A stretch of 64,000 bases of DNA, from NCBI GenBank assembly GCA_947629775.1, contig CANRFA010000003.1, positions 48,098-112,097 on the forward strand. Direction: 5' to 3'. The notes under the pieces were generated by a model. It saw only the letters and a list, made by a program, of their open reading frames with translations. It was not told the DNA's origin and did no database searches. Both the position numbers and the translations under genes were made by a program. This DNA is from an uncultured Oscillospiraceae bacterium. GTDB lineage: Bacteria; Bacillota; Clostridia; Oscillospirales; Oscillospiraceae. Shown one piece after another: positions 10,228 to 63,790 of the stretch; position 1 is the stretch's first letter; every line of letters begins with the position of its first letter.

Positions 10228-10747
10228 TCCCCGCCGGATCCCGACGTAATCATAAAACCTGCCCGGAGCGGCCCTGCGCCGCTCCGGGCAGTTTCTGTCC
10301 CGCTCCGCCCCGGTCCCCCGGAGGCAGGAAAGCGGGAGTGTGGACCGCTTCTCCCTTCCAGGCCGTCCCAGGCCCGAACTCTCCGCTCCCCGGAGCCCGT
10401 AACCGAGAACTGCCGCAGCCTCTGAATCGCAGAAATCACACTTCTGTCCGGACAAACCCTGGCGCAATCCACCTTCCTCCTGCCTGCAGCACTTCTCTGC
10501 ACACGAAAAAGACCTGCCCGAAGGGACAGACGTCCCCGGGCAGGCCTTTTTGCGCTTTCATCCCGGGCCCCGTAAACCGGGTCCCGATTCTGAGCGTAAT
10601 GCGAACGCTTCCCCGCTGATTGGTCACGGTCTCAGCAGGACTCCAGGCAAAAACACGTTTTCCGGACGGCAGTCCTCAGAACCAACGCCAGCCGGGCCGG
10701 GAAGGGAGCGTAAGCCCTACCTCCCTTGCTCTCTTCCGGCAAACGGC

Positions 10748-11692
10748 TCATCCGCCCTGCGTCGTCCGGGTCCGCAGGACTTCGTACATGCGCCGGGATA
10801 CGGGGGCCTCTACGCCCAGGCGTTCCGCTTCCCGTACGATATAGCCGCTGAAGGTCTCCACCTCGGCGGGGCGTCCGGCGTGCATGTCCCGCTGGAGGGA
10901 ACTGCCGGCGTCGTCCCGGTATTCGTGGTAGAAGCGGTCGATCATCTCTGTCCGGTGCTCCGGCAGAACAGGGACACCCTTCGCCCGGGCCACCCGCCAG
11001 GCCTCGTCCACCAGGGCCTCGTACTCCTTCGCCCTCTGTGGGTCGCTGCGCAGAGGTCCTATGGTACAATCGTAGAAGGCGGTCTCTACGTTGTAGGCGC
11101 AGTTGAGGATGTACTTGCGCCAGATCTCCAGCTCGATGTTCTCCGGCACGCTGTGATCGATACCGGCGGCCGTCAGAACGGCGGACACCTCCTCCACCGC
11201 CCGCCGGACCGTCTCGTCTCCGTTCCGGGTTCCGACGCGCAGATTGGCAAACTGCCCCTGCTGGGTGATGGAGTAATCCGCCCCGGCGAAGGCCACAATG
11301 TAGATGAGGGCGTCCACCACGATCCCCTTCCCCAGGCAGGCCCGCACCCGGTCTCCACAGTCCACCCCGTTCATGACCGGCACCACAATGGTGTCCTCCC
11401 TCACGGCGCCCGCCATCTCCCGGCAGACCTCCTCAAGCGAGTAATTCTTGACGCAGACAAAGATCATGTCCTGGGGGCCCAGCTCCGATATGGGCGCCGC
11501 CGTCTCGGGACGGACCCGGATCTCGCCATGGTAATCGCTGTGCAGGAGCAGCCCATGGGTCCGGATGGACTCCATCCGGGCGCCCCGCACCCCCAGGCTC
11601 AGATGGGGAAAGGTCTTCCCCAGCATGCCGGCCAGATAGCCGCCTACGCCGCCCGCACCCAGGACGGCAATTTTCTTCTCCAGAACGCTCAT
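10748..11692 (-). CDS. panE: 2-dehydropantoate 2-reductase
   Basis: GAGGVG Rossmann motif, VCVKNY, WRKYILNC and SSLQRDMHAGRPAE. Confidence 0.88.
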   Translation of the reverse strand: MSVLEKKIAVLGAGGVGGYLAGMLGKTFPHLSLGVRGARMESIRTHGLLLHSDYHGEIRVRPETAAPISELGPQDMIFVCVKNYSLEEVCREMAGAVREDTIVVPVMNGVDCGDRVRACLGKGIVVDALIYIVAFAGADYSITQQGQFANLRVGTRNGDETVRRAVEEVSAVLTAAGIDHSVPENIELEIWRKYILNCAYNVETAFYDCTIGPLRSDPQRAKEYEALVDEAWRVARAKGVPVLPEHRTEMIDRFYHEYRDDAGSSLQRDMHAGRPAEVETFSGYIVREAERLGVEAPVSRRMYEVLRTRTTQGG

Positions 11693-11738
11693 GTTCTCTT
11701 CCTTTCCCTGCCCCGCATATACGCGGGTCTCTGCTTCT

Positions 11739-12317
11739 CTAAAGGGGCCACCGGAAAACCGGTTTGAGGTCCACCGTCAGGTTCTCCAGAACGGAAACCA
11801 GAATCGACTCCTCCGCCCCGTAAGTCCTCTGCTCACGGTAAACGCCTTCCGCAAGAAGGAACACCTCTACCGTCTGCTCCCTGGGGCTGACCAGCCAGTA
11901 CTCCTTCACCCCGGCTCGCTGGTACATGTCCTTCTTCCGGACTCTGTCGTTGTTCTCCGTAGCGGGAGATAGAATCTCCACAACCAGATCCGGAGCGCCG
12001 CAGCATCCATAACGGTCCAGTTTCGCCTCATCGCAGACCACCGTCAGGTCAGGCTCCAGCACATCCGAAATGTCCTCCGGACGGTCCGTCCGCCTGGCAA
12101 AGGGCCGCACCGAAAAGGGAGCGGAATACACCCTGCCGCGCTTCCCCTCCAGATATCCGGCAAACTGCCGCATCAGCTCCCGGCTGATTTCCTGATGAAC
12201 CCGAATGGGCGTTTCCAGCCTCACGGGTTCTCCATGAATGATTTCAATATTTCCCCTGCCCTCCCAGGCCAGGAAATCCGCAAAGGTCCAGAGAGCGGTT
12301 TCCTCTTCCGTATTCAT
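11739..12317 (-). CDS. Uma2-family (PD-(D/E)xK) endonuclease
   Basis: EPDLTVVCD, GAPDLVVEILSP and YQRAGVKEYWLVSP. Confidence 0.9.
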   Translation of the reverse strand: MNTEEETALWTFADFLAWEGRGNIEIIHGEPVRLETPIRVHQEISRELMRQFAGYLEGKRGRVYSAPFSVRPFARRTDRPEDISDVLEPDLTVVCDEAKLDRYGCCGAPDLVVEILSPATENNDRVRKKDMYQRAGVKEYWLVSPREQTVEVFLLAEGVYREQRTYGAEESILVSVLENLTVDLKPVFRWPL

Positions 12318-13114
12318 GCTCCGTCCCTCCCTGACAGATACCTCTCTTCCCGTTGCCGCAGCCAGGCCCAATCCCGGACAAGGCCCTCCACGTCTGCGGC
12401 TTTGTACTCCAACGTCAGAACGGCTTCCGGGGTATGCCGGACCGCTTCCTCCAGGAAGGTCTCCCAGCAGATTCCCCCGGGCACCCTCTCGGATATGGAC
12501 AGGTGGCGGTCCTCCACGCCGTTGTTGTCATGGATGTGGTACTCCAGAATCCGCCCTCCCAGGGTCCGCTGCATATTGGCGAGATCAAAGCCCTCCACAT
12601 GGGCGTGGCCCGTATCCAGCACGCAGCTCAGGTCCGGCTGCGCCTGAAAGAGGGCCGGAAAGTCCTCCGGGCCGAAGAGGGCCAAGCCGCTCATAGGCAC
12701 GTTCTCCACCAGCAGGAGGACTCCCTCCTCCCGGCAGAAGCGGCTGGCCTCCGCCAGGCGACATCCCGCCTGTTCCCGGCGGTGTCTCTGCTCCTCCTCC
12801 GTTCCCCGGGCAGAGGCGGGAACGTTGGTATGGACGATGTACCGGGAAGCTCCAAAGCGATGATACAGACGGAAGGATTCCCGCAGCCGCCGATAGAGAC
12901 TCTCTTCCGTCTCTTCTCCGGCAAAGTCCAGGTCAGATGGCCCGTGGATGCCCAGACTGCCTGTACGCCCTTCCAGAAGTTCCGGCAGCAACGCCGCCCA
13001 GAAGGCCTCGCCGCCCCGCTCGAAGAAGATCTCGATCCCCAGCTCCGGCGGCAGAGTTCCCATCTCCCGCTCCCGGCCTCCGGAAAAGGGCAGCGAACTG
13101 ACCGCAAACTCCAT
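12314..13114 (-). CDS. Sugar-phosphate isomerase/epimerase (xylose-isomerase-like TIM barrel)
   Basis: LLVENVP, LDTGHAH, EYHIHDNNG..DRHL and LTLE. Confidence 0.8.
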   Translation of the reverse strand: MEFAVSSLPFSGGREREMGTLPPELGIEIFFERGGEAFWAALLPELLEGRTGSLGIHGPSDLDFAGEETEESLYRRLRESFRLYHRFGASRYIVHTNVPASARGTEEEQRHRREQAGCRLAEASRFCREEGVLLLVENVPMSGLALFGPEDFPALFQAQPDLSCVLDTGHAHVEGFDLANMQRTLGGRILEYHIHDNNGVEDRHLSISERVPGGICWETFLEEAVRHTPEAVLTLEYKAADVEGLVRDWAWLRQREERYLSGRDGA

Positions 13115-13262
13115 CCGGCACACATCCTTCCCGCCGGCTGGCCGGCGCTCCGGCCCCGGCCGGTAACTTTTCCGCTTCTTCCCGGCTGTCATCCGTCCCA
13201 ATCCCGGACATACTATCCCTGCCCGTCCCATGGACGGAACTGAGGAGAAGGAGCGTGGAGCG

Positions 13263-13430
13263 ATGAACGGCAGGCAGGCCCAGCAGATCCGGGAAGACGC
13301 GGTGGTCCGGACCTACGTGGACATCAGCAAGCGGGTCAACGGTTCCCTGGAGGACACCGTGGCCCTGGTGCAGGAAGACCTTGGCTACGCCCCGGAGGAC
13401 GCCCGGCAGCGGGTAGTCCGCATCTGGTAG
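13263..13430 (+). CDS. Small hypothetical protein
   Basis: GGAG RBS; 55-aa ORF. Confidence 0.45.
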   Translation: MNGRQAQQIREDAVVRTYVDISKRVNGSLEDTVALVQEDLGYAPEDARQRVVRIW

Positions 13431-13789
13431 AATCCCTCATGGCGGGTCAGAGCGTGCTCTGGCCCGCTTTTTCTGTCCTGGACCTGTTCCTCTCCGCCGG
13501 AAACCAGAGAGATCGAACAGACCATCCTCTAGCGCTCCTGTCCACACCCCCGGACATCTCCTGTATTTTACCCGGATCCACAGACCCGCGCAAGCCCTGA
13601 TTCCGGCTCCCGGACCGTTCTTTTCCTGCCGCACAATCCCACCGCTTTTCGTTCCCGGCCGGAATGTACAAAAGGCGCCAGGTTCCGGCCGGACGCCTTC
13701 CGTATTCTCCCGCGGGAGACAGATGTACATCTTTTCCTGGCGGAGGCCCCGGACGCGAGGTCCCCTGTCCGGTCCCTCCGGCACCCTCC

Positions 13790-15370
13790 TCAGCTCTCTT
13801 GAGGGGCCTCCTTCGCCTGCGGACTGCCGGAGAAGCAGCGGCGCAGCAGATACACCGGGGTACAGCTCCAGGCATGGCAGAAGCTGTTGACGATGAGGCC
13901 TCCGTAGGGGGAGCCATCCGGATGGGCGGGATCCCAGGCCTCCCAGAAGGTGTCCGCTCCCGCCTCCAGCATGCCGCCCCAGTAGTCCCGGATCACGGCC
14001 AGGGCCTTCTCCGCCAGACCGGCCTGCAGCAGAGCGGAGACATAGTAGTGGTGCATGTAGGGGGTCTGCATGGGGAAGTTCTCCAGAATGGCGTCCGAGC
14101 GCTCCATCACATCCCGGGCCTCCTCCGGCTTCAGGACCCCCGCCAGGATCATCCACACCTGGCTGGCGATGGAGATCTGCCCGCCGGAGACAAAGAAGCC
14201 CTGCTCCGGATCCCAGAAGGTCTCCCGGGCGCCGTGCTCCAGCCGCTCTGTCAGGACGGTCAGGTCCGCTTCCCGCTCCCGGTCTCCCATGCGCCGGGCC
14301 AGATTCCGGCCATGGCGGGCGGCATAGAGGAGGATCGCCTGGGCGCAGGCCCGCTTGTCCAGGCCGTCGCACCAGTCCACGAAGGTGGCCTCTCCGTCCT
14401 CCGGCCTGGGCAGAATCCCGTCCGTAAAGCGGGCGCGGATCAGATCAATCTGCTCCATGGCCGCGGGATAGAGATCCTCCAGGGTCTCCGGATCGTCCCG
14501 CTCCTCCAGATACTCCTCCAGGGCCACCGGGAAAAAGAGGGAGTAATCCAGCAGCCAGGTGTCGTCCGCCTCGGGCGCGGGCTTCGTAAAGACGCATGCG
14601 CTGATCCGTCCGTCCGGAAAGCGGGTGCCCGCGAAGAGGTACAGGCAGCGGCGCACCAGATCCAGGCTGCGGAAGCTGGCGTAGCTGGCCAGGGCCTGCA
14701 GGCGCAGATCCCCCATCCACAGCCGCTGGTCCCGCTTGGGCCCGTCCTCGAAGATCTCCTGGGTGCAGTCCGCCAGGGTGCGCAGACCGGCCCGGTCGAT
14801 GCGCTCCAGCAGTCCGTCCCCGATGGACAGCGGGGTCACCTGGCTCAGGTCCGCGGAGGACTCCGTCACACAGCGGACCTCCTGCAGAAGGAGGCGGTAC
14901 TTCGGGGAGGTATCCAGCACCTCCAGCTCCAGAAAGCGGAAGGCGCAGCGGCGGGGCAGGTCCACCCGGGCCGGCAGTTCGTCCACCCGCAGTGTTTCCT
15001 CCTGAATCCAGCTGCGGGAAACCCAGCCGTGGTAGGCTTTGGGATCCTCCTCCAGCTCCCGGCGGATCTCCGCCAGGCGCACCTGGAAGAGAGCCGGCGC
15101 GTCCGGATGGCTGCCGGAGCTGCCCAGCGACAGGGTAATCCGCCCCACCATATGGGTCCCGAAATCCAGACAGATCCGGTCTCCAGGTCCCAGAGGCCGC
15201 CGGGGCAGTTCTTCCAGGGAAACGGGACGGTCTCCCGTCTCCTCCCGCACAAAGGCCTCCATGGGGCCCGCCACCCGGTAGTGAAGGACAGGGCGCAGCT
15301 GCTCCGCCTTCCCCAGAAGCCGAGGGTCGTTTTTCGGGGTGAATCCTTCAATCCTCTGAATCAGTTCCAT
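13790..15370 (-). CDS. Alpha-L-rhamnosidase (GH78-type)
   Basis: LDFG, EDGPKRDQRLWMGD, TFWEAW and SFCHAWS. Confidence 0.85.
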   Translation of the reverse strand: MELIQRIEGFTPKNDPRLLGKAEQLRPVLHYRVAGPMEAFVREETGDRPVSLEELPRRPLGPGDRICLDFGTHMVGRITLSLGSSGSHPDAPALFQVRLAEIRRELEEDPKAYHGWVSRSWIQEETLRVDELPARVDLPRRCAFRFLELEVLDTSPKYRLLLQEVRCVTESSADLSQVTPLSIGDGLLERIDRAGLRTLADCTQEIFEDGPKRDQRLWMGDLRLQALASYASFRSLDLVRRCLYLFAGTRFPDGRISACVFTKPAPEADDTWLLDYSLFFPVALEEYLEERDDPETLEDLYPAAMEQIDLIRARFTDGILPRPEDGEATFVDWCDGLDKRACAQAILLYAARHGRNLARRMGDREREADLTVLTERLEHGARETFWDPEQGFFVSGGQISIASQVWMILAGVLKPEEARDVMERSDAILENFPMQTPYMHHYYVSALLQAGLAEKALAVIRDYWGGMLEAGADTFWEAWDPAHPDGSPYGGLIVNSFCHAWSCTPVYLLRRCFSGSPQAKEAPQES

Positions 15371-15415
15371 GTTCGTTTCCTCCTGACTGCAGACAGACAT
15401 ACATTAAGCTGCGAC

Positions 15416-15444
15416 AGTATAGCCTCCCGCCCCGGATCTGTCAA
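15416..15444 (-). promoter_or_regulatory. Promoter of the rhamnosidase gene
   Basis: TTGACA-N17-TATACT. Confidence 0.65.
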
Positions 15445-15526: not shown

Positions 15527-15841
15527 TTACATGATCTTGCGGAACAGCGCCTTGAAGTCCTCCACGCTGGCCTCCTTGGGGTTGCCGGGGGCGCAGGCGT
15601 CCGCGGCGGCGGACTGGGCCAGGAACTCCAGATCCTCTTCCTTCAGCTTCTCCAGCTTCGTGGGGATCCCCACGTCCACGGACAGCTGACGGACGGCGTC
15701 GATGGCGGCCTTGCGGTAGGCGGCCTGGTCCATGCCGGTGGTATCCACGCCCATGGCCTCCGCGATATACTTGAACTTGTCGCCGGTGGCATCCTGGTTG
15801 TACTCCATGACGATGGGCAGCATCATGGCGCAGGCGACGCC
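15527..15841 (-). pseudogene. fucO: 3' fragment of an iron-containing alcohol dehydrogenase (lactaldehyde reductase-like), cut off by the prophage
   Basis: GVACAMMLPIVMEYN...DACAPGNP matches the Fe-ADH C-terminus. The codon before Gly (15842-15844) is TAA where the His of the HG motif is expected. Confidence 0.8.
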
Positions 15842-15901
15842 TTATGTTAATTTGTGCAACGTCCGGCCCACTCCAAAACCGGCAGGCCAGCCCTGAGAGG
15901 C

Positions 15902-15930
15902 AGTATATAGCCTGACCGCCCGGATGTCAA
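15902..15930 (-). promoter_or_regulatory. Outward-facing promoter at the prophage end
   Basis: TTGACA-N17-TATACT about 60 bp from the junction. Confidence 0.65.
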
Positions 15931-19879: not shown

Positions 19880-20465
19880 GGTGATACTGGAGGGATTGTA
19901 AGTAGCACCCATATAGCTCTGTTACTGGAGATATTCCATGATAATACCGGTTATGGGTGTACATGGACAATGTATAATATGGCTCCAGTCATGGGTTATC
20001 CTGGCTTTGATAGGTTTTCAACCCTGTTCTGGAGGTTACTGGACCATATGTAAATCAGATTGGAATATGGGTTGAACTGGAGCCATTGTAAATCAGGTCG
20101 CTTTCTGGGTGACACTGGAGAGAATGGAAATTCGGAAAGAATACGGGTTATGCTGGAGTCAATGGAAATCAGGTGACAATATGGGTAGAGCTGGCCTGAA
20201 TGTCATCAGCCTCCGGATTCGTTTTATCCTGGGTATCCTGGTATTCCAACCCATCAACGGGTGTTTACAGCTATCCTGGGTTTATAACCCATTATCGGAC
20301 CTTTATAGCCGTATTGGGCGTAATACCCATTATCGGGTTCTCGACCCATCACCGGGTGATTATAGCCATTTTGGGTTTGTAACCCATCACCGGGTTCCCA
20401 TGGCTGTTTTGGGTCTGCAACCCATTAACGGGTGATTATAGCCATCTTGGGTTGGATACCCATAT
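19880..20465. repeat. Degenerate 38-bp tandem array
   Basis: CTGGAG-like motif at 19887, 19925, 19963 ... 20229 in 38-bp steps, then about five 38-bp units containing TGGGT-N5-ACCCA. Confidence 0.75.
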
Positions 20466-20645: not shown

Positions 20646-21584
20646 TTACATGGAAGCCGCCTGGGTCTGCTGGAGGGAAATGGTGGGCAGGTTCCGGGTC
20701 ATGTGGTACATGGCGTTCTTAAAATCCTCCCCTTCGAACCCGTACCGCCGGAGCCACGCCCGCATGGTATCCCGGGGGCGGTTCGTGGTACAGGGGCTGG
20801 GCGTGGTATTGCGGGCGTATACGCTACCGCATACCATAGCAAGGGAAAACAGCACCCACGCCTTTACCATGCCCGCATGGAGCCCGTTTTTCTTGCCGTT
20901 CCCGGGTTCCTCAAAGTTGAACAGCCGGAACTCAATGGTTCCTTTTGTGAAAAGGGCGTGGAGGTTAACCATATGGTAACGGCTGGGATTGTAGTGTGCG
21001 GTCCGGGGCGTGTAGTGGTAGTTGGCGTACCACAAGTCGCTCACTTCTGCCAGGGACTGGGGGAAGTCCTTGTTCATACCCTCCAGGAAGTCCCTGTCCG
21101 CCCGGGCACAGTAGGTCATCCGGCTTTCCGGAATTCCGATGGCAGTAACTAACAGTTCCTCGTGGCACGCCATCGTATTGGAGAGGTTGCGAATGTCAGT
21201 TGGTCCCAGGTTTTTCCCGTCAATGTGAACGTGTACCCCGCAGCCGTTGGAGGCATAGGACTGCGCCCCCGCGCCCCGGAGGGCACGGATGACTTTCTGG
21301 AGGGTATCCATATCCTGGAGGTACAGGGGAGGCGTTGCCATTTCGCAGCCCCCGCTGTAATCGAGGTCGTGGAGGCTTGCGTCAGACATGAAGCTCCACT
21401 CGCGCCCCTGGGGGTCCGTCACCGCCCACCGGTCGTAGCTGGGTCCCGCATAGCGGACGGTCCCGCCCAACACGTCCCGGGCGACGTTTGCAGCCTTGTC
21501 CCGGGCGATGCCCGTCATTTCAATTTCCACGCCATAGGTGCGGTCCAGCATATCACGCTGGATTTTCATGGAGAGGTTCGTCAT
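20646..21584 (-). CDS. Putative amidoligase (Amidoligase_2 / COOH-NH2 ligase type)
   Basis: YGVEIEM, SDASL, CEMATPPL, CGVHVHI and KGTIEFRLF. Confidence 0.88.
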   Translation of the reverse strand: MTNLSMKIQRDMLDRTYGVEIEMTGIARDKAANVARDVLGGTVRYAGPSYDRWAVTDPQGREWSFMSDASLHDLDYSGGCEMATPPLYLQDMDTLQKVIRALRGAGAQSYASNGCGVHVHIDGKNLGPTDIRNLSNTMACHEELLVTAIGIPESRMTYCARADRDFLEGMNKDFPQSLAEVSDLWYANYHYTPRTAHYNPSRYHMVNLHALFTKGTIEFRLFNFEEPGNGKKNGLHAGMVKAWVLFSLAMVCGSVYARNTTPSPCTTNRPRDTMRAWLRRYGFEGEDFKNAMYHMTRNLPTISLQQTQAASM

Positions 21585-21643
21585 TGTTGCCATTCCTTTC
21601 TGCCCCCGTGGGGGGCGGTCCGTGTTCCCTGTTTACGTTGTAC

Positions 21644-21792: not shown

Positions 21793-22137
21793 CCCCAAAT
21801 GATAACTTTTTTCATGCAACTTCTGCATGAATTCGGGGGTTTCTATCGATTCCATGCATATATGAACGCCGGGGCCTGGTCCGGGGCTTAAATTACCATA
21901 AACTTGTAAAAATGGGGGGGCGGGGTCCCGACGCTTCCAGTATCACCCATTTTGGGCATAGTTACCATTTGTCCATCAACACCCATACGGTCCGTTTCCA
22001 CCCAAATGGGTTCTTCTTCCGATTTTCCATGTATCTGACATGGCAGCTATCACCCATGGGCGCTCCACCCATTTTCCATGGAACTGACATGGGTGTTTTC
22101 GGTAATCTCCAGCCCGCTGTCAGTTTTCCGTTATTCT

Positions 22138-22809
22138 CCATTGGGTCTGTTGCCCATGGACCATAACGTTAAACGACCCAGGAACCTCCATTGGGTTTCT
22201 GTCCCATGGATCATACCGTCACTAAACCCAGCTTTGCCCAATGGGTTCATAACCCATGGACCTTACAGTCAGACAACCCATCCTCCTCCAATGGGTTTAC
22301 AACCCATGGAGCATATCGTGAAACGACCCAGGTTTCTCCACTGGGTCTGTTGCCCATGGACCGTACCGTCAGGCAACCCAGGAACCTCCATTGGCTCTAC
22401 AACCCATGGGTCGTATCGGGATTTAACCCATCATCCTCCATTGGATTTACAACCCATGGGTTGTACCGTAAAACGATCCATCCTCCTCCAATGGGTCCCT
22501 GACCCATGGGTCGTGCCGTTAAGTAACCCAGAAACACCCACTGGGCCTCCAACCCATGGGTCGTAGCGGGATTCAACCCAGGTTTGCCCAATGGATTTAC
22601 AACCCATGGACCGTATCGTCAGACAACCCAGGTTTCCCCAATGGGTGCCTGACCCATGGGTTGTACCGTAAAACGACCCAGGAACCTCCATTGGGTCTAC
22701 GACCCATGGACCATAGCGTTAAACAACCCAGCTTTCCCCAATGGGTCTACAACCCATGGAGCGTACCGCCATTCAACCCATCATCCTCCAATGGGTTCCT
22801 GACCCATGG
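22138..22809. repeat. 50-bp tandem array, block 1 (13 full units plus a partial unit)
   Basis: CCAWTGG every 50 bp from 22138 to 22788; unit CCAWTGGGT-N5-ACCCATGG...ACCCA. Confidence 0.95.
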
Positions 22810-23145
22810 ACCTTGAACCCATTTTGCCGAAAACTGACATGGACCAATTATCCATGGGCCTTCCTCCCATTTTCCATCAAACTGACATGGAAAATCGGTC
22901 CATGGGTGATACAGCCAATCTCCAGAGAACTGACATGGCTATATCCCCCATGGGTTGTTAACCCAATCTCCAGGAAAATGACATGGGTATTTCCTCCATG
23001 GACCTTATCCCCAATTTCCATCAAACTGACATGGCGAAACAACCCATGGGTGAACGACCCATTTCCCATCGAACTGACATGTAAGATAAACCCATGGGTT
23101 ATATCGGTAATTCCCATCGAACTGACATGGGTGCAAGGCCCATGG
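22804..23145. repeat. 48-bp tandem array (7 units)
   Basis: CCATGG at 22804, 22852, 22900, 22948, 22996, 23044, 23092 and 23140, with AACTGACATGG between. Confidence 0.95.
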
Positions 23146-23189
23146 AGTTTTTCGGTAATCTCCAGCCCGTTGCCAGTTTTCCAGTATCC

Positions 23190-23558
23190 TACATGGGTCT
23201 ACCGCCCATGGACCGTACCGTCATTCAACCCAGGTTCCTCCAATGGGTTTACAGCCCATGGACCATACAGACACATAACCCAGAAACCCCCATTGGGTTC
23301 ATAACCCATGGAGTGTACCGTCAGACGACCCAGAAAGCTCCATTGGGTCTATCGCCCATGGACCGTACCGTCAAACGGTCCAGGAACACCCATTGGGTTC
23401 ACTGCCCATGGAGCGTAAAGGAATCCATCCCAATACCACCCATTGGGTTTACAACCCATGGCCTGTATCGCCAAGCAACCCAGGAACACCCATTGGGTCT
23501 ATCACCCATGGGTCGGGATCCCATTTACCGAAAATTGTCATGGCCTGATTTTCCATGG
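23190..23558. repeat. 50-bp tandem array, block 2 (6 full units), then one 48-type unit
   Basis: Unit starts at 23190, 23240 ... 23490. Confidence 0.92.
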
Positions 23559-25172: not shown

Positions 25173-25425
25173 CCCCCTTTGCTAACTTTTTTCAAAAAAA
25201 TTTTCATGCGCATGCCCGTTGCCGTTGCCGGAACGGCAACTGACAAAAGCTGGACCGATAGGATCCGCCCTTCCATCCGCCCGTATTTTCCATTTACTTG
25301 GAATGGGTTCAATCTCCATGGACCGATTTTCCATGCCCTTTCGTTGGAAGCGCCTGCCATATATCCAGTAGCTGCCATGGTCCATCTGTCTGTCAGAATC
25401 GGCAGTTTCTGGAGGTCCATTTTCT

Positions 25426-25740
25426 ACCCATCAGGTCCATCAATTAACAACCCGATTTTCACCCATTAGGTCCAGCTTTTTACAACCCATTTCAGACCCA
25501 TCAGGCCCATCAACTGACATCCCATTTTGGACCCACCAGGTCCATCTATTAACAGTCCATTTTGGACCCGGATGGTCCATTTGCTGACAACCCATTTTCT
25601 ACCCATCCGGTCCATCAACTTACATCCCATTTTCCACCCATTGACTCCAGCTCCTTACAACCCTTTTTCGAGCCATCAGGTCCATCTATTAACAGTCCAT
25701 TTTTGCCCCATCAGGTCCACCTTCTGACAACCCACTTTTC
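25426..25740. repeat. 35-bp tandem array (9 units)
   Basis: Consensus ACCCATCAGGTCCATC..TTAACA.CCCATTTT.. repeated with an exact 35-bp period. Confidence 0.92.
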
Positions 25741-55955: not shown

Positions 55956-57041
55956 CTAATCGTATGGCAGGAAGTCTTTGCCGTAGATGTCATTCATCCA
56001 GTCAAAGACCTTCGCCATGCCGTATCCGCCCTTGCTGGGACCCCAGATCTCCTTGGGGTTCCAGCTGCCTGCAGGGGCAGCGGGATCGTAGTCCGGGTTG
56101 GGCGTGAACTCCCCACCGCTCATGCAGTATTCGTACTGGTGCGGGTGGGTGCGCTTCAGCTGCTGGAACCGGCTTTCTCCCTTGCCTATGTGGGCTCCGA
56201 AGGCGCAGAAGATACAGCCCGTTCGCTGGCACCCGGTACAGTGGTGCTTGCCCTTGGCGTCCGTCTCAATCTCCCCGTAGACGGAGCAGATGGGCAGCTG
56301 ATTCCTGCGGATGTACTCCAATACATCCTGATTCGTCCAGAAGCTCATGGGCCTGCTGGCCTCGTTCCCCTTCGTGAAGGCGTTGCAGCCGGTCTGGACC
56401 CATGAGGTTCTCCTGCGCAGACTCTCCTCCGCCATCGTCGCCAGGATGACTTTCCGGCCCGTCTCCTTCTGATACACATGCTGCGGGTTCTTCTTGCTCA
56501 GATCGCAGCACCTGTCGGAGAAACGGACGGGCAGATCGTACATGGGCCTCCACCTCTTGGCGTCCAGAGCGCTGAATCCTCCATCCCTGCGCAGAAACGT
56601 GCCTTCCAGCCTCTGCATCCGGGTGCTGTGCGGGTTCCGCCTGGCCCCCTGCAATACGTCGCAGACCTGCTTGGAGACCACTGGGTATCCATGGGTGGAG
56701 AGAATATCCCGAAAGGTTACCAGGTTGCCCGGAGTTTTCCCAAAGCGGTTCCGCCCCCACCTGGGCCGGATTTCGGTCACGTTCTCATGGGAAAGGGCGA
56801 ATCGCCTCACTTCCGGAAACTCCAGCCCCGTGTTGATGAATACCGCCGGAATCCCGGGAAACATCTTCCTGGCGATATCCAGCAGCACCGTACTGTCCTT
56901 GCCACCGCTGAAGCTGACGTACACCTGCCCATCGTAGTGTTTGTACCACTCGATAAGACGGGTCTGTGTGATCATGATTTTGCGCTCCAGTGGCAGCTTC
57001 TGCAACTCCTTTAATCTGTTCTGGTCATGAACTCCATCCAT
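55956..57041 (-). CDS. PAPS/APS-reductase family protein
   Basis: SFSGGKDS, NTGLE, RCC and RTGCIFC. Confidence 0.85.
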   Translation of the reverse strand: MDGVHDQNRLKELQKLPLERKIMITQTRLIEWYKHYDGQVYVSFSGGKDSTVLLDIARKMFPGIPAVFINTGLEFPEVRRFALSHENVTEIRPRWGRNRFGKTPGNLVTFRDILSTHGYPVVSKQVCDVLQGARRNPHSTRMQRLEGTFLRRDGGFSALDAKRWRPMYDLPVRFSDRCCDLSKKNPQHVYQKETGRKVILATMAEESLRRRTSWVQTGCNAFTKGNEASRPMSFWTNQDVLEYIRRNQLPICSVYGEIETDAKGKHHCTGCQRTGCIFCAFGAHIGKGESRFQQLKRTHPHQYEYCMSGGEFTPNPDYDPAAPAGSWNPKEIWGPSKGGYGMAKVFDWMNDIYGKDFLPYD

Positions 57042-57395
57042 CCTGTAAACCTCCTCAGCTTCATATGGTAATTGACATAAAGAGTCCCCCGTGCTATACT
57101 CTCTGGCGGATGGAGCTTGCCTGGGAAGGTGCAAGACAGTCTGAAGGGCACAGAGCTTTGCGACAGCTCTGTGCCCTTAATTTTTTCTCAGAAAGTTGAA
57201 AAAAAGACTTGCTTTCCGGGCAGGTCTATGGTATCTTTAAGGAGCACTAGAAAAGTGCGGCCATCCCCGCTCTAGGGGGGCCGGGAACTCTCCAGCCCGG
57301 CCCCCTTTTACTCCTCTTTACAGTTAAGAATCCTGCACCCAGAGAGTGATGCGGTCCGTATCCGGGCCAAATCCTCTATGCGGTGCAGGATTTCG

Positions 57396-58751
57396 TCATT
57401 TCAGGTACGTCTTATCGCAGTAGCCGGTCAGATTGCCCGCTACCACGCACAGCCAGACGTGTCCATTCGTCCCGATGTTGTAGTAGCCGTAGCACCGGAC
57501 CTTCGTTCCATTCTTCAGGGTGGTGAGGATCCCTTCGTTGGTGCCAGCGCCCCATCTCAGGTGAAGCCCCGCCTTCGCTGCTACCGTCCACGTTTTATTG
57601 TAGGACTCCGACTTCTTCTGCGCCACCTGATAGGCGGGCTTGGACGTACTGGACGTGCTGGATGTACTGGTACTTACAGAGGGCGTTGCGGTGGCCGTGG
57701 AGGCGCTTGTACCGCCCAGCTTCGCTGCAATGGACTTATAGTCCGGGGTAATGAACCCCCGGATGTACCGCCCATTCTGCTTCATGGACCGGGTTGTCAC
57801 CTTATTGGACTTGTTCCCCTCCGTTACCACAAAGGAGGTGCCGGATACCTTGGTCACAATCCCAATATGGTTAGGCGCTCCCGTATTGTCCCCCTTGCCG
57901 GAGTCTTCCCAGTCGTAGATAATGGCGTCTCCGATTTTGGGCATGTAGGAGTCAGACTCCACCCACGTCCCTTTCGACTTGGCGATCTCGATGAACTTGC
58001 TGCATGAACACTCCGTGCCTGTATAGTCTGCGATCCCGCAGGCAATCCACGTGGCAGACACCGTAGCAGCGCACCAGGCGTCCTTCAGTCCCATCTTATA
58101 GCCTCTCGCCAGGGGCTTGTGGCCGTTGTAGATGTCCAGAATCTTCTGATGCGTTGAGCTGCCCTCTTTAGCGCCCATCCATCCGTTAATGGTGGATACC
58201 ACCTTATTCCTCAGTTCCGTCTCTGTCATTGCGCTTCCTCCTCCCTGATTTGCAACGTACTTCTCGCCGTACCCGGCCCGCTTTGCCTTCGCAGCCTCGC
58301 TCTGGTCAGCCGGGCGCTCGAACTGTAGCAGGAAGGCGTCCGACGCTTCCCGCACCGTCCTGGCACCCTTCAGAGTTTCCAACAGGCCCTTATAGCCCGT
58401 CTTCAGCTCCTGCATCATGAATTCCAGCTGCGTCTCAAGGTCCCCTATGGACTTCCCACGGGTCCTGGCGTAATCCAGCAGAGCCTCTTTCCGGCTCCAA
58501 TACGTCCACTGGCACATCCCGTATCCGGCGCTGTCATGGATGAACCCGGAATAACCCCCGCTGTCCACCGCTGCCGTGTATTCAGCGTCAGACAGCCCCA
58601 GGCGCTTTTCAGCGCTGTTTTGCAGGTTGATGGGGTTCAGCCCGCTTTCCGCATACAGATTGCCCATTACTCCGGCAGCGCCCTCCGGGGTCAGGCCCTG
58701 CCCGGTCAGGAAGTTGCGGATCTTATCCGTATCAGTTGAACCGGTAAGCAT
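57396..58751 (-). CDS. Endolysin: phage-tail-lysozyme + CHAP + SH3b
   Basis: GNLYAESG..GYGMCQWT, WCAATVS...HIGIV, and GLHLRWGAG..GYC. Confidence 0.85.
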   Translation of the reverse strand: MLTGSTDTDKIRNFLTGQGLTPEGAAGVMGNLYAESGLNPINLQNSAEKRLGLSDAEYTAAVDSGGYSGFIHDSAGYGMCQWTYWSRKEALLDYARTRGKSIGDLETQLEFMMQELKTGYKGLLETLKGARTVREASDAFLLQFERPADQSEAAKAKRAGYGEKYVANQGGGSAMTETELRNKVVSTINGWMGAKEGSSTHQKILDIYNGHKPLARGYKMGLKDAWCAATVSATWIACGIADYTGTECSCSKFIEIAKSKGTWVESDSYMPKIGDAIIYDWEDSGKGDNTGAPNHIGIVTKVSGTSFVVTEGNKSNKVTTRSMKQNGRYIRGFITPDYKSIAAKLGGTSASTATATPSVSTSTSSTSSTSKPAYQVAQKKSESYNKTWTVAAKAGLHLRWGAGTNEGILTTLKNGTKVRCYGYYNIGTNGHVWLCVVAGNLTGYCDKTYLK

Positions 58752-58768
58752 ATCCAGCCTTCTTTCTC

Positions 58769-59143
58769 TCAGCCAACGGGTCCATCATCGCCCTTGCCCT
58801 TCATATCCTCCAGCTTCCAGGCCCTGTCCTGTCGCTTGTCCTTATTCGTCTTGATCCAGCCCATGATTCCGCATTCTCCGCCCAGCGTGGCAAACACGCA
58901 GGTAATCAGCGTATCAGGCACTGACAGATAGTTCACAAACATCCAGATACACGCCACCGTAAAGGCCAAAAGGGCAATCCCTACGAGAATCAGAATCAGG
59001 TTCATTACCCCAATTCTCTCTACAAGCCCCTTGCCGGTCTCCTGCCTCTTCCCATGGTTCACCTTTACCACCCGGTTTATCCCGGTAAAGGCTATCACCC
59101 CAAGACAGAAGCTGATGAAGCAGGCTGCTATCAGGTCAGGCAT
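58769..59143 (-). CDS. Holin-like membrane protein
   Basis: Multiple TM helices; adjacent to the endolysin. Confidence 0.6.
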   Translation of the reverse strand: MPDLIAACFISFCLGVIAFTGINRVVKVNHGKRQETGKGLVERIGVMNLILILVGIALLAFTVACIWMFVNYLSVPDTLITCVFATLGGECGIMGWIKTNKDKRQDRAWKLEDMKGKGDDGPVG

Positions 59144-59873
59144 CCGGTTCCACCGGCTTTACCTCAGACTGAGCGCCGTCAGAGGCCGTCTCAGACCCTC
59201 CCGGCTCCTTGGCTGTGTCCTTGCTTTCCTCCGGCTCAACAGGGCCAGCAGGGGCCATATCCGGAACCATAGGCATATCCGACTCTGCGGGTTCTACAGG
59301 GCTTTCAGGAGTCTCCGGATGAACCTCAGTATCCGTATTACCTTCAGGAGCCTCCACAGGAAGCTCAGGATTCTCAGGAGCTTCAGGAAACGTCTCTACC
59401 ACCAGGGGTGTATCTGTATTCCCCTCCGGCTCCATGGGCGCTACAGGGGCTTCAGGAACCATCTCCAGGTACTCGCTGTCCCCGTAATCCGGCTCCACTT
59501 GCACATAATCCGTGTTGCCCGTGGATCCACTGGCAGGGGCCGAGGTATTCTTTCCCTTGGACTTGGGATTGGTAATCGCCTGATTCAGAGCGTACACCTC
59601 ACTCTCCACCATGGCCCGGAGCCGGTCATAGTCGATCGTGAACTTATTGGCCTTCAGCCAGCTCTGCATGGCCTCCATAACGTACTGGAGCTTTTCCGTC
59701 CCCAGGCTCAACAGCTGCTCCGCTGCCTGCACGTACACCTTCACCTGAGTCAGGATATCCTCCGTGTGGGTCTGCTCCACCTGCGCCTTCACAAATGGAA
59801 TCAGAAAGCGGGTAATAATTACAACAGCCCCTGCCATTACGGCAGAGGCTATCGCTGTCAGGTCCAGTCTCAT
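59136..59873 (-). CDS. LL-H-type holin with an acidic Pro/Glu-rich extension
   Basis: TM helix, VQAAEQ..G.EKL and ESEVY, followed by a PE-rich tail. Confidence 0.65.
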   Translation of the reverse strand: MRLDLTAIASAVMAGAVVIITRFLIPFVKAQVEQTHTEDILTQVKVYVQAAEQLLSLGTEKLQYVMEAMQSWLKANKFTIDYDRLRAMVESEVYALNQAITNPKSKGKNTSAPASGSTGNTDYVQVEPDYGDSEYLEMVPEAPVAPMEPEGNTDTPLVVETFPEAPENPELPVEAPEGNTDTEVHPETPESPVEPAESDMPMVPDMAPAGPVEPEESKDTAKEPGGSETASDGAQSEVKPVEPDA

Positions 59874-61328: not shown

Positions 61329-62342
61329 CTATCTGCCCAAAATCAGTACCTTAATATGTGTTTCATCCAGCCTTGCCATGACCCGGAACGGAGTCCGCTC
61401 TCCAGATCGAACTGCTATTCCTTCCTGGCCTGGCCGAACAAATCCGTTGACTTTCGCTGAACCGTCGTCCACCATGACCAGTTTGCCTACCAGCCCCACT
61501 GCATCCCACTCCGGTCTGTCTTCCCTGGCTACGTACTCTTGGTTGGAATCGTAGTCAGGATTCAGCTTCATATGAGTCTCTACACGCTCAGGACGAATGA
61601 CATTTCCTTCAGAGTCAAGATCAGCAGGGACTGTGTAATCTTCCCATAGAGTCCGACCGAACACATCCGTCATGTACATCCCGGACCATTGATCGCTGTA
61701 CACATCTCCTAGACAGGAAGGGTTCCCGGATACGATACCGATGATATCTTCGATAACGGTATCAGGTCCAGCAAGACTGATCATTTCTCCATCAAGAGTA
61801 ACGAATCTGCCTGCACGGTCTTCGTTGGATGGATTGCCGTCTTCCCATTCAAACATCTCGGCGTAGTCGGCACCGGAAGTGTTGAAGGAACCTGATCCGT
61901 ACACTTTACCATTGTTGGCCACTCGAAATGCATTTGAGCGATAACTATCACTACTTCCATTTCCTATAATAAGAAACGAGGAAGTGTCTGCTTTATTGTA
62001 TTCTCCGATTGCTGTTTGATAATCGCCACTTGCTTCTGTATATTGACCACCAGCATGTGAACTAAATCCTGATGCAACTGTATGATAACCCTCTGCATGG
62101 GCATCTTGTGCGGTCGCTTTTGTACCTGAGCCTTCAGCGTGAGACACAGGGCCTTGTGCGGTCGTATTAGTTCCTTCAGCGTGAGACTCATTACCACTTG
62201 CGGTCGCAAAAGCTCCTTCAGCGTGAGACTCATCACCCTCTGCCGAACATGAATGTCCCTCCGCTGTCGCATTCGCCCCAAGTTTTGTACCTTCTTTTTT
62301 ACCTTGTACGGTGCTTCCACCATCCACTAGATTAAAAATCAT
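61329..62342 (-). CDS. Tail fibre with SHAEG repeats and a Peptidase_G2-like intramolecular chaperone
   Basis: SHAEG repeats; GADYAEMFEW.DGN..EDR.G.FV and EW..VGLVGKL. Confidence 0.78.
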   Translation of the reverse strand: MIFNLVDGGSTVQGKKEGTKLGANATAEGHSCSAEGDESHAEGAFATASGNESHAEGTNTTAQGPVSHAEGSGTKATAQDAHAEGYHTVASGFSSHAGGQYTEASGDYQTAIGEYNKADTSSFLIIGNGSSDSYRSNAFRVANNGKVYGSGSFNTSGADYAEMFEWEDGNPSNEDRAGRFVTLDGEMISLAGPDTVIEDIIGIVSGNPSCLGDVYSDQWSGMYMTDVFGRTLWEDYTVPADLDSEGNVIRPERVETHMKLNPDYDSNQEYVAREDRPEWDAVGLVGKLVMVDDGSAKVNGFVRPGQEGIAVRSGERTPFRVMARLDETHIKVLILGR

Positions 62343-62416
62343 CTTCTACACCACCTTTCACTGGCAACACTCAAGGGTGCTACCCCCCCATTTTAAGACC
62401 ATATTGGTTTCCCCCC

Positions 62417-63790
62417 TTACTTCAAAGGTATGATTACGACATAGACAATCAGAGTTGAGAAAGGCTTGGTGTCGCAGGAAAACGTCAGAGTGCCAGAGCC
62501 CTGAGCGGTGACTTTCACGCCTGACTGAATGTATGCTGTCAGACTGCCCATAGCCGGTGTTGGGATAATCAAAGCATCCGTCTCTGACGCTGTAACTCCG
62601 GCTACTGGCTTCGTGCATGAATTGGATGTCCAGTCGCCAGCAGCAATGGACAGAGTTACCGTACTGGGCTTTTTAGCGTAGTCATGCGTATGGTTTGCAG
62701 CTGCATAGTCAGTACCTTCTACAGCCTTAAGAACTGTCTTCCCGTCACCCTTCAGAATACCGGTAATGTTGGTCGTGGTAGTTGTACTGACGGTATTGGG
62801 TCCGGCATCACCCTTGGCTCCTGCTGCGCCATCTTTACCGGCAGCTCCAGCGGGTCCGGTGGGTCCAGCGGGTCCTGCCGGGCCTGTTGCACCCTTCAGG
62901 TTGGTAAAATTGAAGGTGAATACCTTCTTGGTATCCTCTCCGGTGGCCGTAATGGTACAGCCGGGGGTTCCGGTCCCGGAATCAACGGTTACTTGAGGCG
63001 TTCCAAACCCGGCAGCTGCACCGGCAGCGCCAGCAGGTCCTGTAGCGCCTGCTGAACCAGCGGGACCTGCGGGTCCTGCCGGACCGGTCGCCCCCTGGGG
63101 ACCTTTGATATTCACGCTTTCAGGTGCAGTGCTTGAGGCTGTACCCTTGGCCCAGCTCAACAGACCGGTGCCGTCTACTGAGGGCACCCAGGTTACGCCG
63201 TCAGCGCCCTTAGCGCCAGCTGCACCTGCTGTTCCGGCTGGTCCTGTATCGCCCTTGGCTCCCTTGAGGTTGTCGAAGTTGAACGTGAACACCTTGGCCG
63301 TATCCTCGCCAGAGGCTTCCACCGTAACGGACGGAGTGCCTCCAGTACCGGTCCCAATTGTCGCCACAGGCTTTCCAAATCCGGCTGCTGCGCCCGTATC
63401 GCCCTTGGCTCCCGCTGCTCCATCCTTGCCGGGATTGCCCTGGGGGCCTTTGATGTTCTTCGCTGCCGGAGTACTGGAGGCATTTTTCTCCCAGGTCAGA
63501 TCTCCTGAGTCGCTGACGGTAGGAACCCACGTATCGCCCGTTGCGCCTTGCAGACCCTGCGGACCGGTAGCGCCCTTCAGTTCCCCGTCATCCAGCTTCT
63601 GCTGGAAGGTATCTCCATCCTCGAAGGTCACTTCCTTCGCCTGGTGCGTATGAACTGCATTCGCCTTGGACGTTTTCATTTCCTCCAGCGCTGCTGTGAC
63701 TTTCTGGATTGTCTCCTGCAGGTAGTTCAGCGTGTAGTTCTTCACAGCCTCCAGACCGGATTGCAGATGTTCGATGCCAATTAGCTTCAT
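62417..63790 (-). CDS. Collagen-like tail fibre protein
   Basis: Gly-X-Y runs and a duplicated GFG...KVFTFNF.NLKG module. Confidence 0.8.
   Translation of the reverse strand: MKLIGIEHLQSGLEAVKNYTLNYLQETIQKVTAALEEMKTSKANAVHTHQAKEVTFEDGDTFQQKLDDGELKGATGPQGLQGATGDTWVPTVSDSGDLTWEKNASSTPAAKNIKGPQGNPGKDGAAGAKGDTGAAAGFGKPVATIGTGTGGTPSVTVEASGEDTAKVFTFNFDNLKGAKGDTGPAGTAGAAGAKGADGVTWVPSVDGTGLLSWAKGTASSTAPESVNIKGPQGATGPAGPAGPAGSAGATGPAGAAGAAAGFGTPQVTVDSGTGTPGCTITATGEDTKKVFTFNFTNLKGATGPAGPAGPTGPAGAAGKDGAAGAKGDAGPNTVSTTTTTNITGILKGDGKTVLKAVEGTDYAAANHTHDYAKKPSTVTLSIAAGDWTSNSCTKPVAGVTASETDALIIPTPAMGSLTAYIQSGVKVTAQGSGTLTFSCDTKPFSTLIVYVVIIPLK

Follow-up and report, generated by a model that had tools for sequence, protein, structure and literature searches.

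The window analysed here, a stretch of 64,000 nucleotides from a gut-type Oscillospiraceae bacterium, corresponds to contig C3:48098-112097 (a window position is the C3 position minus 48097) and contains, on its minus strand, the 3' fragment of a gene for lactaldehyde reductase, fucO, which abuts one end of a prophage (Table 1). The frame of the fragment is intact, with no frameshift and no internal stop, and translation of the minus strand of 15527-15904 gives ...TLHKLT*GVACAMMLPIVMEYN...FRKIM*. The 104 residues from G-V-A-C-A-M-M onward match positions 91-194 of the 194 positions of Pfam ADH_Fe_C (E = 8.6e-22). Upstream of them, the first triplet of foreign DNA is an in-frame TAA (TTA on the plus strand, 15842-15844), supplied by the first three bases of an AT-rich 19-mer, TTATGTTAATTTGTGCAAC, at 15842-15860. 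An earlier, sequence-only reading of this DNA had traced the iron-dependent alcohol dehydrogenase (Fe-ADH) frame back to G-V-A-C-A-M-M, with the TAA and the 19-mer next to it, and the translation confirms this. In blastn, the similarity to 15 of 15 intact fucO genes breaks off at exactly window position 15841, and the GC content, 64% in the host flank, drops at this near junction to the 56.6% of the element.

The gene downstream of fucO, already named as an alpha-L-rhamnosidase in that reading, belongs to family GH78 according to Pfam (Glyco_hydro_78_N, 3e-37; Bac_rhamnosid6H, 1.6e-20). A look-up of its exact sequence, which would point to the same species in other samples, returned no record. 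About 5 kb lie between fucO and ppdk here and hold a ketopantoate-reductase-like gene, a xylose-isomerase-like TIM barrel gene and the GH78 rhamnosidase gene (window 10500-15400); in a genome of the same genus (G018, locus L019), a convergent ppdk comes directly after fucO.

Table 1. Features of the split gene, the attachment sites and the prophage (window positions unless marked C3, which denotes contig coordinates).
Feature	Position	Strand	Remarks
GH78 alpha-L-rhamnosidase gene	13790-15400 (or 13790-15370)	-	downstream of fucO
Promoter of the rhamnosidase gene	15416-15444	-	5' of the GH78 gene
fucO 3' fragment (lactaldehyde reductase)	15527-15841	-	codons Gly278-Met381 and stop, the last 104 codons
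Core GGCGTC (fucO sense), near junction attR	15836-15841		same hexamer at the far junction, C3:167906-167911
P arm (phage side of the attachment site), TTATGTTAATTTGTGCAACGTCCGG	15842-15866		contains the 19-mer
Near-consensus promoter TTGACA-17-TATACT (11/12)	15902-15930	-	at the prophage end, reads out of the element, over attR and into the fucO 3' fragment
Whole prophage	C3:63939-167905		103,967 bp; window part 15842-64000, continues beyond the window end
Early region	window part		small genes, repeat arrays
Amidoligase	20646-21593	-	in the window
PAPS reductase	55956-57134	-	in the window
Lysis cassette	57396-59873	-	endolysin, small ORF, holin
Endolysin	57396-58751	-	Phage_lysozyme2, CHAP and SH3 domains
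Holin	59136-59873	-	part of the lysis cassette
Tail-fibre genes	61329-63790	-	collagen and Peptidase_G2 domains
Packaging and head genes	outside window		large terminase with Hint insert, portal-NUDIX, major head protein
Tail genes	outside window		sheath-like DUF3383, baseplate wedge, 1888-aa tape-measure-like gene
DNA-function genes	outside window		RecT, PD-(D/E)XK nuclease, DnaC-like loader, ParB-like protein
Cro-like HTH gene	C3:165478-165720 (outside window)	-	opposite orientation, after a perfect consensus promoter
cI-like HTH gene	C3:165876-166292 (outside window)	+	same strand as and upstream of the recombinase
Large serine recombinase, 489 aa	C3:166396-167865 (outside window)	+	ends 40 bp short of the far junction (attL)
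P' arm, inverted partner of the P arm	C3:167881-167905 (outside window)		end of the element
fucO codons 255-279	C3:167906-167982 (outside window)	-	final 77 contig bases, ending in GGCGTC

The interrupted gene and the prophage

Judged by comparison with its full-length counterpart, the interrupted gene is a true fucO orthologue. The fragment shares 89% amino-acid identity with the 381-aa orthologue of G018, and it is this full-length protein that was scored against the NCBIfam lactaldehyde reductase equivalogs (NF007911 / TIGR02638), reaching 630.7 bits (cut-off 537) and 576.1 bits (cut-off 523.15). In the alignment with E. coli FucO (1RRM; E = 3.4e-134) it is free of gaps through residue 309, and it has the conserved motifs HSMAH and TPHG and the fold of the Group III Fe-ADH enzymes. 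In the residue numbering used here, His277 is what we take to be an iron ligand. The two other Fe-ADH genes of the window's genome stay far below the equivalog cut-offs, with 296.6 and 117.1 bits, and no second fucO equivalog occurs in the assembly; a second intact fucO had been named in the sequence-only reading as a finding that would speak against it. The gene order in G018 is rhaB (rhamnulokinase), an isomerase gene, rhaD (rhamnulose-1-P aldolase) and fucO, and contig C142 of the window's own genome shows synteny with this rhamnose operon over its kinase and isomerase genes. Together with the GH78 rhamnosidase downstream, this places fucO in a deoxy-sugar context.

The element itself is predicted from its gene content to be a single, apparently intact myovirus-like temperate phage. 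It has the terminase, portal, head, sheath, baseplate, tape-measure, lysis and lysogeny genes of a tailed phage of the contractile type, one strand carries about 80% of its genes, and the frames of the structural, lysis and replication genes scanned are open; the searches with family libraries took in about two thirds of the phage ORFs. Among the large ORFs scanned there was no transposase domain, and in place of the DDE transposase of a Mu-like phage or a transposon the element has a serine integrase.

Several details of the phage genome were observed in passing. A second PAPS-reductase-like gene lies at C3:158026-158886, and the portal and a NUDIX hydrolase domain form one fusion protein of 850 aa (C3:145929-148481, L017:13929-16481, minus strand). 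The large terminase (C3:148848-150719, L017:16848-18719, minus strand) has a Hint/Vint-type insert at about residues 124-162 and aligns with phage terminases in two pieces only, and an intein inside the terminase is therefore likely. A radical-SAM protein (C3:111971-113680, window 63874 to beyond its end; L016:1-1680, minus strand) with Hint, PT-HINT and intein-splicing domains is a probable second intein carrier in the same phage. The early region holds non-coding tandem arrays at 20038-20453, 22136-23511 and 25417-25740, with periods of 38, 50, 48 and 35 bp and short palindromic words, which are candidate protein-binding, centromere-like or origin arrays.

Attachment sites, integrase and the missing 5' half

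The sequence-only reading had placed no integrase at the near end, where indeed the four closest ORFs have no Pfam match, and had proposed to look for a recombinase at the far end. Such a gene is present there, only 40 bp from the junction, and encodes a large serine recombinase of 489 aa. The enzyme comprises a Resolvase domain (PF00239, residues 9-159, E = 6.4e-26), a Recombinase domain (PF07508, 6.8e-24) and a zinc ribbon (PF13408, Zn_ribbon_recom, 5.6e-10), the Cys-rich ribbon being visible in the sequence, and it has the catalytic VST motif, AAAYIRVSTEEQ, also read as YIRVSTEEQ. The protein is full length with its catalytic motif and is predicted to be the integrase acting on attP x attB. 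When contig C3 was scanned for PF00239 and PF00589, no other serine recombinase and no tyrosine integrase were found.

A tblastn search of the window's own genome with FucO of G018 located residues 278-381 at the near site and residues 255-281 at the extreme end of C3, 104 kb away on the same strand. The 5' half of the gene, which the sequence-only reading had also proposed to look for, was thus found in part, codons 255-279 standing there in frame but codons 1-254 lying outside the assembly. In fucO sense, the far junction reads ...CCCCAC GGCGTC followed by CCTTGTGTCAATTTGTGCAATGACAGG, the near junction reads ...GGACGTTGCACAAATTAACATAA followed by GGCGTC GCCTGCGCC, and the uninterrupted site of G018 is CCTCAC GGCGTG GCCTGCGCC. 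The identity between the phage site and attB is confined to the 6 bp GGCGTC, which are flanked by imperfect inverted arms of about 25 bp. The P arm and the inverted P' arm are identical at 20 of 25 positions, with a local alignment score of 15 (best of 2000 shuffles, 11). Such imperfect inverted arms around a short core, with little identity to attB beyond it, are of the attP type; the AT-rich 19-mer is part of one of these arms, and from the arm symmetry the central crossover dinucleotide within the core is likely to be GT.

Joining the flanks in silico restores the frame as ...YDTPHGVACAMM..., the same as in 80 orthologues; an open reading frame that is interrupted by a prophage and restored by its precise excision, as in active lysogeny, is thus found at the level of the joined sequence. 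The peptide around the crossover, HSMAHTLGAVYDTPHGVACAMMLPIVME, is invariant in the 80 orthologues, which come from several families, and variation is seen at third codon positions only. Since FucO of G018 aligns with 1RRM without gaps through residue 309, the crossover can be placed after the His277 codon, in the Gly-Val codons GGCGTC that directly follow it. The stop had previously been placed exactly where the His of the HG motif was expected: the break does fall at this motif, but the His277 codon is retained on the 5' fragment at the far junction. With the phage modules, the exact junctions and the equivalog scores of the G018 orthologue, that reading is supported in placing a prophage inside a fucO-like gene.

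The near-consensus promoter at the prophage end would, in the circular phage, read antisense to the integrase gene, and it is possibly a candidate regulator that responds to the state of integration. It resembles the promoter of the rhamnosidase gene (15416-15444), with identical hexamers and a similar GC-rich spacer.

Only 77 bp of the fucO 5' half are assembled. Metagenome binning yielded this genome as 204 contigs, the smallest of which has 2502 bp (2.5-kb cut-off), and contig C142, of 4212 bp, ends about 1.3 kb ahead of the fucO start. The piece in between, the remainder of the isomerase gene together with rhaD and codons 1-254 of fucO, would measure about 2.1 kb, or about 2.2 kb with overlaps. 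The 5' half would lie on a linking contig of about 2.2 kb, which falls below the cut-off of the bin, and its absence, an effect of binning, is therefore not evidence of decay. From this assembly geometry we infer that codons 1-254 are intact; C142 and C3 are presumably linked, as suggested by the synteny with G018.

The end of C3 is informative in itself. Exact 77-bp overlaps occur at 61 contig-end pairs of the assembly, and the final assembly k was therefore 77. C3 ends exactly 77 bases from the point at which the phage and the intact fucO diverge, the last six of these bases being GGCGTC. A contig that stops exactly k bases from the crossover implies a second continuation, that is a second junction form, in the reads of the sample. 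The simplest candidate for it is the empty site, which could stem equally well from excision in the lysogen or from a non-lysogenic strain.

Ordinary insertion or regulated switch

We consider it about 75% probable that the element of approximately 104 kb is a temperate phage that integrated in fucO by its own large serine recombinase and that the disruption of the gene is an ordinary intragenic insertion. Recombination of attP with attB by this recombinase would have led to chromosomal integration, attB lying within the most conserved part of fucO, immediately 3' of the codon for the iron ligand His277. The lysogen would then have a split fucO, with 279 codons on the 5' side that run on into a tail of 11 phage-encoded codons and, on the 3' side, 104 codons devoid of a promoter; excision by the integrase together with a putative phage directionality factor would rebuild the gene exactly. 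Most likely, the gene disruption would be a side effect of the use of a conserved sequence as landing site. As to how excision is controlled, we infer that fucO would be restored on prophage induction or curing only, rather than by a host-controlled switch. This model is supported by both fucO halves at opposite ends of one element, by the common 6-bp core and by the inverted arms. Conserved coding sequence is a common target of large serine integrases, and a Mn-catalase gene harbours the nearest relatives of the one studied here; therefore, the splitting of fucO alone is no evidence of regulation.

An insertion that serves as a regulated switch, in the manner of active lysogeny, appears unlikely to us. 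Here a host cue, for example rhamnose or fucose, would trigger excision without cell death, possibly followed by re-integration, and would thus control 1,2-propanediol formation. Such a function would be in keeping with the intact, fully conserved frame that precise excision would restore, with the lack of a second fucO equivalog in the assembly and with the position of the integrase gene on the same strand and directly downstream of a repressor-like gene, so that it may be made in the lysogen. Both gene fragments are also undecayed, dN/dS being 0.10 for the 3' part in comparison to 0.13 for the neighbouring ppdk, with no amino-acid change across the 25 codons of the far-end piece; a recent insertion, however, would leave the fragments in the same state, and dN/dS was discarded as a discriminator, as recent insertion and maintained function are not separable by it. 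Likewise, the end of C3 at k = 77 from the crossover, with its second continuation after GGCGTC, is what excision would give, but a related non-lysogenic strain would account for this k-mer branch just as well, and 61 other contig-end pairs branch likewise. Precedents exist in comK/phi10403S and spsM/SPbeta (PMC5499854), yet the known cases use terminally differentiating cells or a special control of the lysis genes, neither of which is seen here. In addition, the phage and its integrase occur on one contig only of the protein collection, which gives no sign of a conserved, co-evolved arrangement. The more specific idea that the prophage would act as a reversible switch of deoxy-sugar fermentation, whose outward promoter would reach the integrase gene in antisense in the excised circle only, loosely like lambda sib, is at least as doubtful.

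We attach a similarly low probability to permanent pseudogenisation, by which fucO would have been lost for good in this lineage through a cryptic prophage or a degraded 5' half. Codons 1-254 are missing from the assembly, and fucO is dispensable in some relatives, as seen from an AbiEi insertion in genome G643 and from frameshifted copies in other assemblies. Against this stand the exact att junctions with intact arms, the full-length integrase with its catalytic motif and the open frames of the scanned phage genes, while the C142-C3 gap of about 2.2 kb, shorter than the smallest contig of 2502 bp, explains the missing 5' part. An artefact or a transposition event is far less probable still, even though a mis-join is conceivable in a metagenome bin of 204 contigs and the inverted ends with a short direct repeat look superficially like transposon ends with GGCGTC as target-site duplication. 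Two independent junctions with complementary, in-frame gene halves are not expected of a chimera; inverted arms around a short core are the look of a serine-integrase attP, and a serine integrase is located at the element end, with no transposase domain among the large ORFs scanned.

Under ordinary insertion, fucO is split in two and the dedicated lactaldehyde reductase that ends the rhamnose pathway would therefore be off in the lysogen. The locus would thus illustrate concretely how a gut anaerobe can be deprived by lysogeny of its only dedicated lactaldehyde reductase. When other gut bacteria form 1,2-propanediol from rhamnose or fucose, this product feeds propionate producers, and carriage of the prophage could therefore alter this cross-feeding route. 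If the switch reading were true, excision, perhaps without lysis, would reactivate the conversion of lactaldehyde to 1,2-propanediol in the presence of rhamnose or fucose; meanwhile, the fucO insertion is best taken as an ordinary intragenic serine-integrase insertion. Furthermore, the attP/attL/attR set of a previously unseen large serine integrase is now fully mapped, and its target is conserved across many gut Firmicutes, which may interest builders of integrase toolkits.

Known systems and relatives

Serine-integrase elements are well known to insert into conserved coding sequence, as in comK, spsM, sigK and groEL1, and the fucO case fits this intragenic pattern in every testable feature. 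Phages A118 and phi10403S of Listeria are, like the fucO phage, serine-integrase phages inside a host ORF, comK, which is restored by precise excision, and for the comK prophage excision without lysis during growth in phagosomes has been established experimentally. Where comK is a regulator, the target of the fucO phage is a catabolic enzyme, and the fucO phage has about 2.5 times the size of the Listeria phage. Phages of the type of mycobacteriophage Bxb1 (in groEL1) and of phiC31 use a large serine integrase, a short core, inverted attP arms and an intragenic attB, and the gene is simply inactivated in the lysogens. Although the host phylum and the target differ and the sequences are only distantly similar, we think that this ordinary Bxb1-type model probably applies to the fucO phage by analogy.

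In Bacillus subtilis, SPbeta resides in spsM and uses the integrase SprA and the directionality factor SprB, and the spsM frame is rebuilt upon excision (PMC5499854). With 134 kb and 104 kb, respectively, SPbeta and the fucO phage are both large prophages that occupy a host gene by means of a large serine integrase. However, the excision of SPbeta is tied to sporulation by a mother-cell promoter on sprB, whereas the target of the fucO phage is no sporulation gene; among the fucO-phage ORFs scanned, neither a directionality factor nor a host-controlled promoter was identified. The skin element in sigK, with its recombinase SpoIVCA and its versions in Clostridioides and C. perfringens (phiS63), is removed by a serine recombinase, which reconstitutes the gene (PMC5025042, PMC3442830). 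Although it is likewise a serine-recombinase element that splits a gene, skin of B. subtilis is a defective phage remnant used in development, while the fucO element looks complete and lies in a metabolic gene.

We found no recurrence of the split fucO gene. Exact matches to the att arm were absent from viral_contigs and genome_contigs, and the two matches of a degenerate arm pattern in metagenome_contigs were dismissed as chance hits in AT-rich DNA. At 29 order-level loci whose recombinases are 36-47% identical, no Fe-ADH fragment adjoined the recombinase, and a FucO scan of viral_contigs returned full-length host copies only. In a class-wide scan of 399 genomes for a split fucO, only contig-edge fragments and one unrelated disruption were detected; in the latter, from a member of the Clostridia (G643:C94, L152, 2595-4524), an AbiEi-antitoxin gene stands in place of fucO residues ~67-190, and fucO is therefore dispensable in some lineages. 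A search with the 99-aa FucO ORF yielded many public proteins of exactly 99 aa, which were considered as signs of repeated splitting and rejected, the six contigs inspected containing upstream frameshifts, N runs in scaffolds or contig edges. The excess at this length is an artefact of gene calling: each time, a TGA out of frame was followed by a new start call at the conserved Met283. In one scaffold piece (L145), the sequence behind an N gap opens with precisely ...C GCC TGC, a single case that is not significant.

Among 5.8 billion proteins, the integrase was found on one contig only, to which knowledge of the fucO specificity is so far confined, and its best relatives are about 50-52% identical. 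Three of these (P0023, P0070 and P0113; loci L053, L055 and L058) lie, in several metagenomes, at the end of an element and border directly on a CotJC-like Mn-catalase sequence (...YGGPDGELG...). Like the fucO phage, they are integrated inside a conserved gene, but this gene encodes the Mn-catalase and their att arms are unrelated to those of the fucO phage. The element with P0070 carries a lysogeny module as in the fucO phage, with HTH genes, SLT and the recombinase at the element end, and all three elements are possibly sporulation-gene intervening elements.
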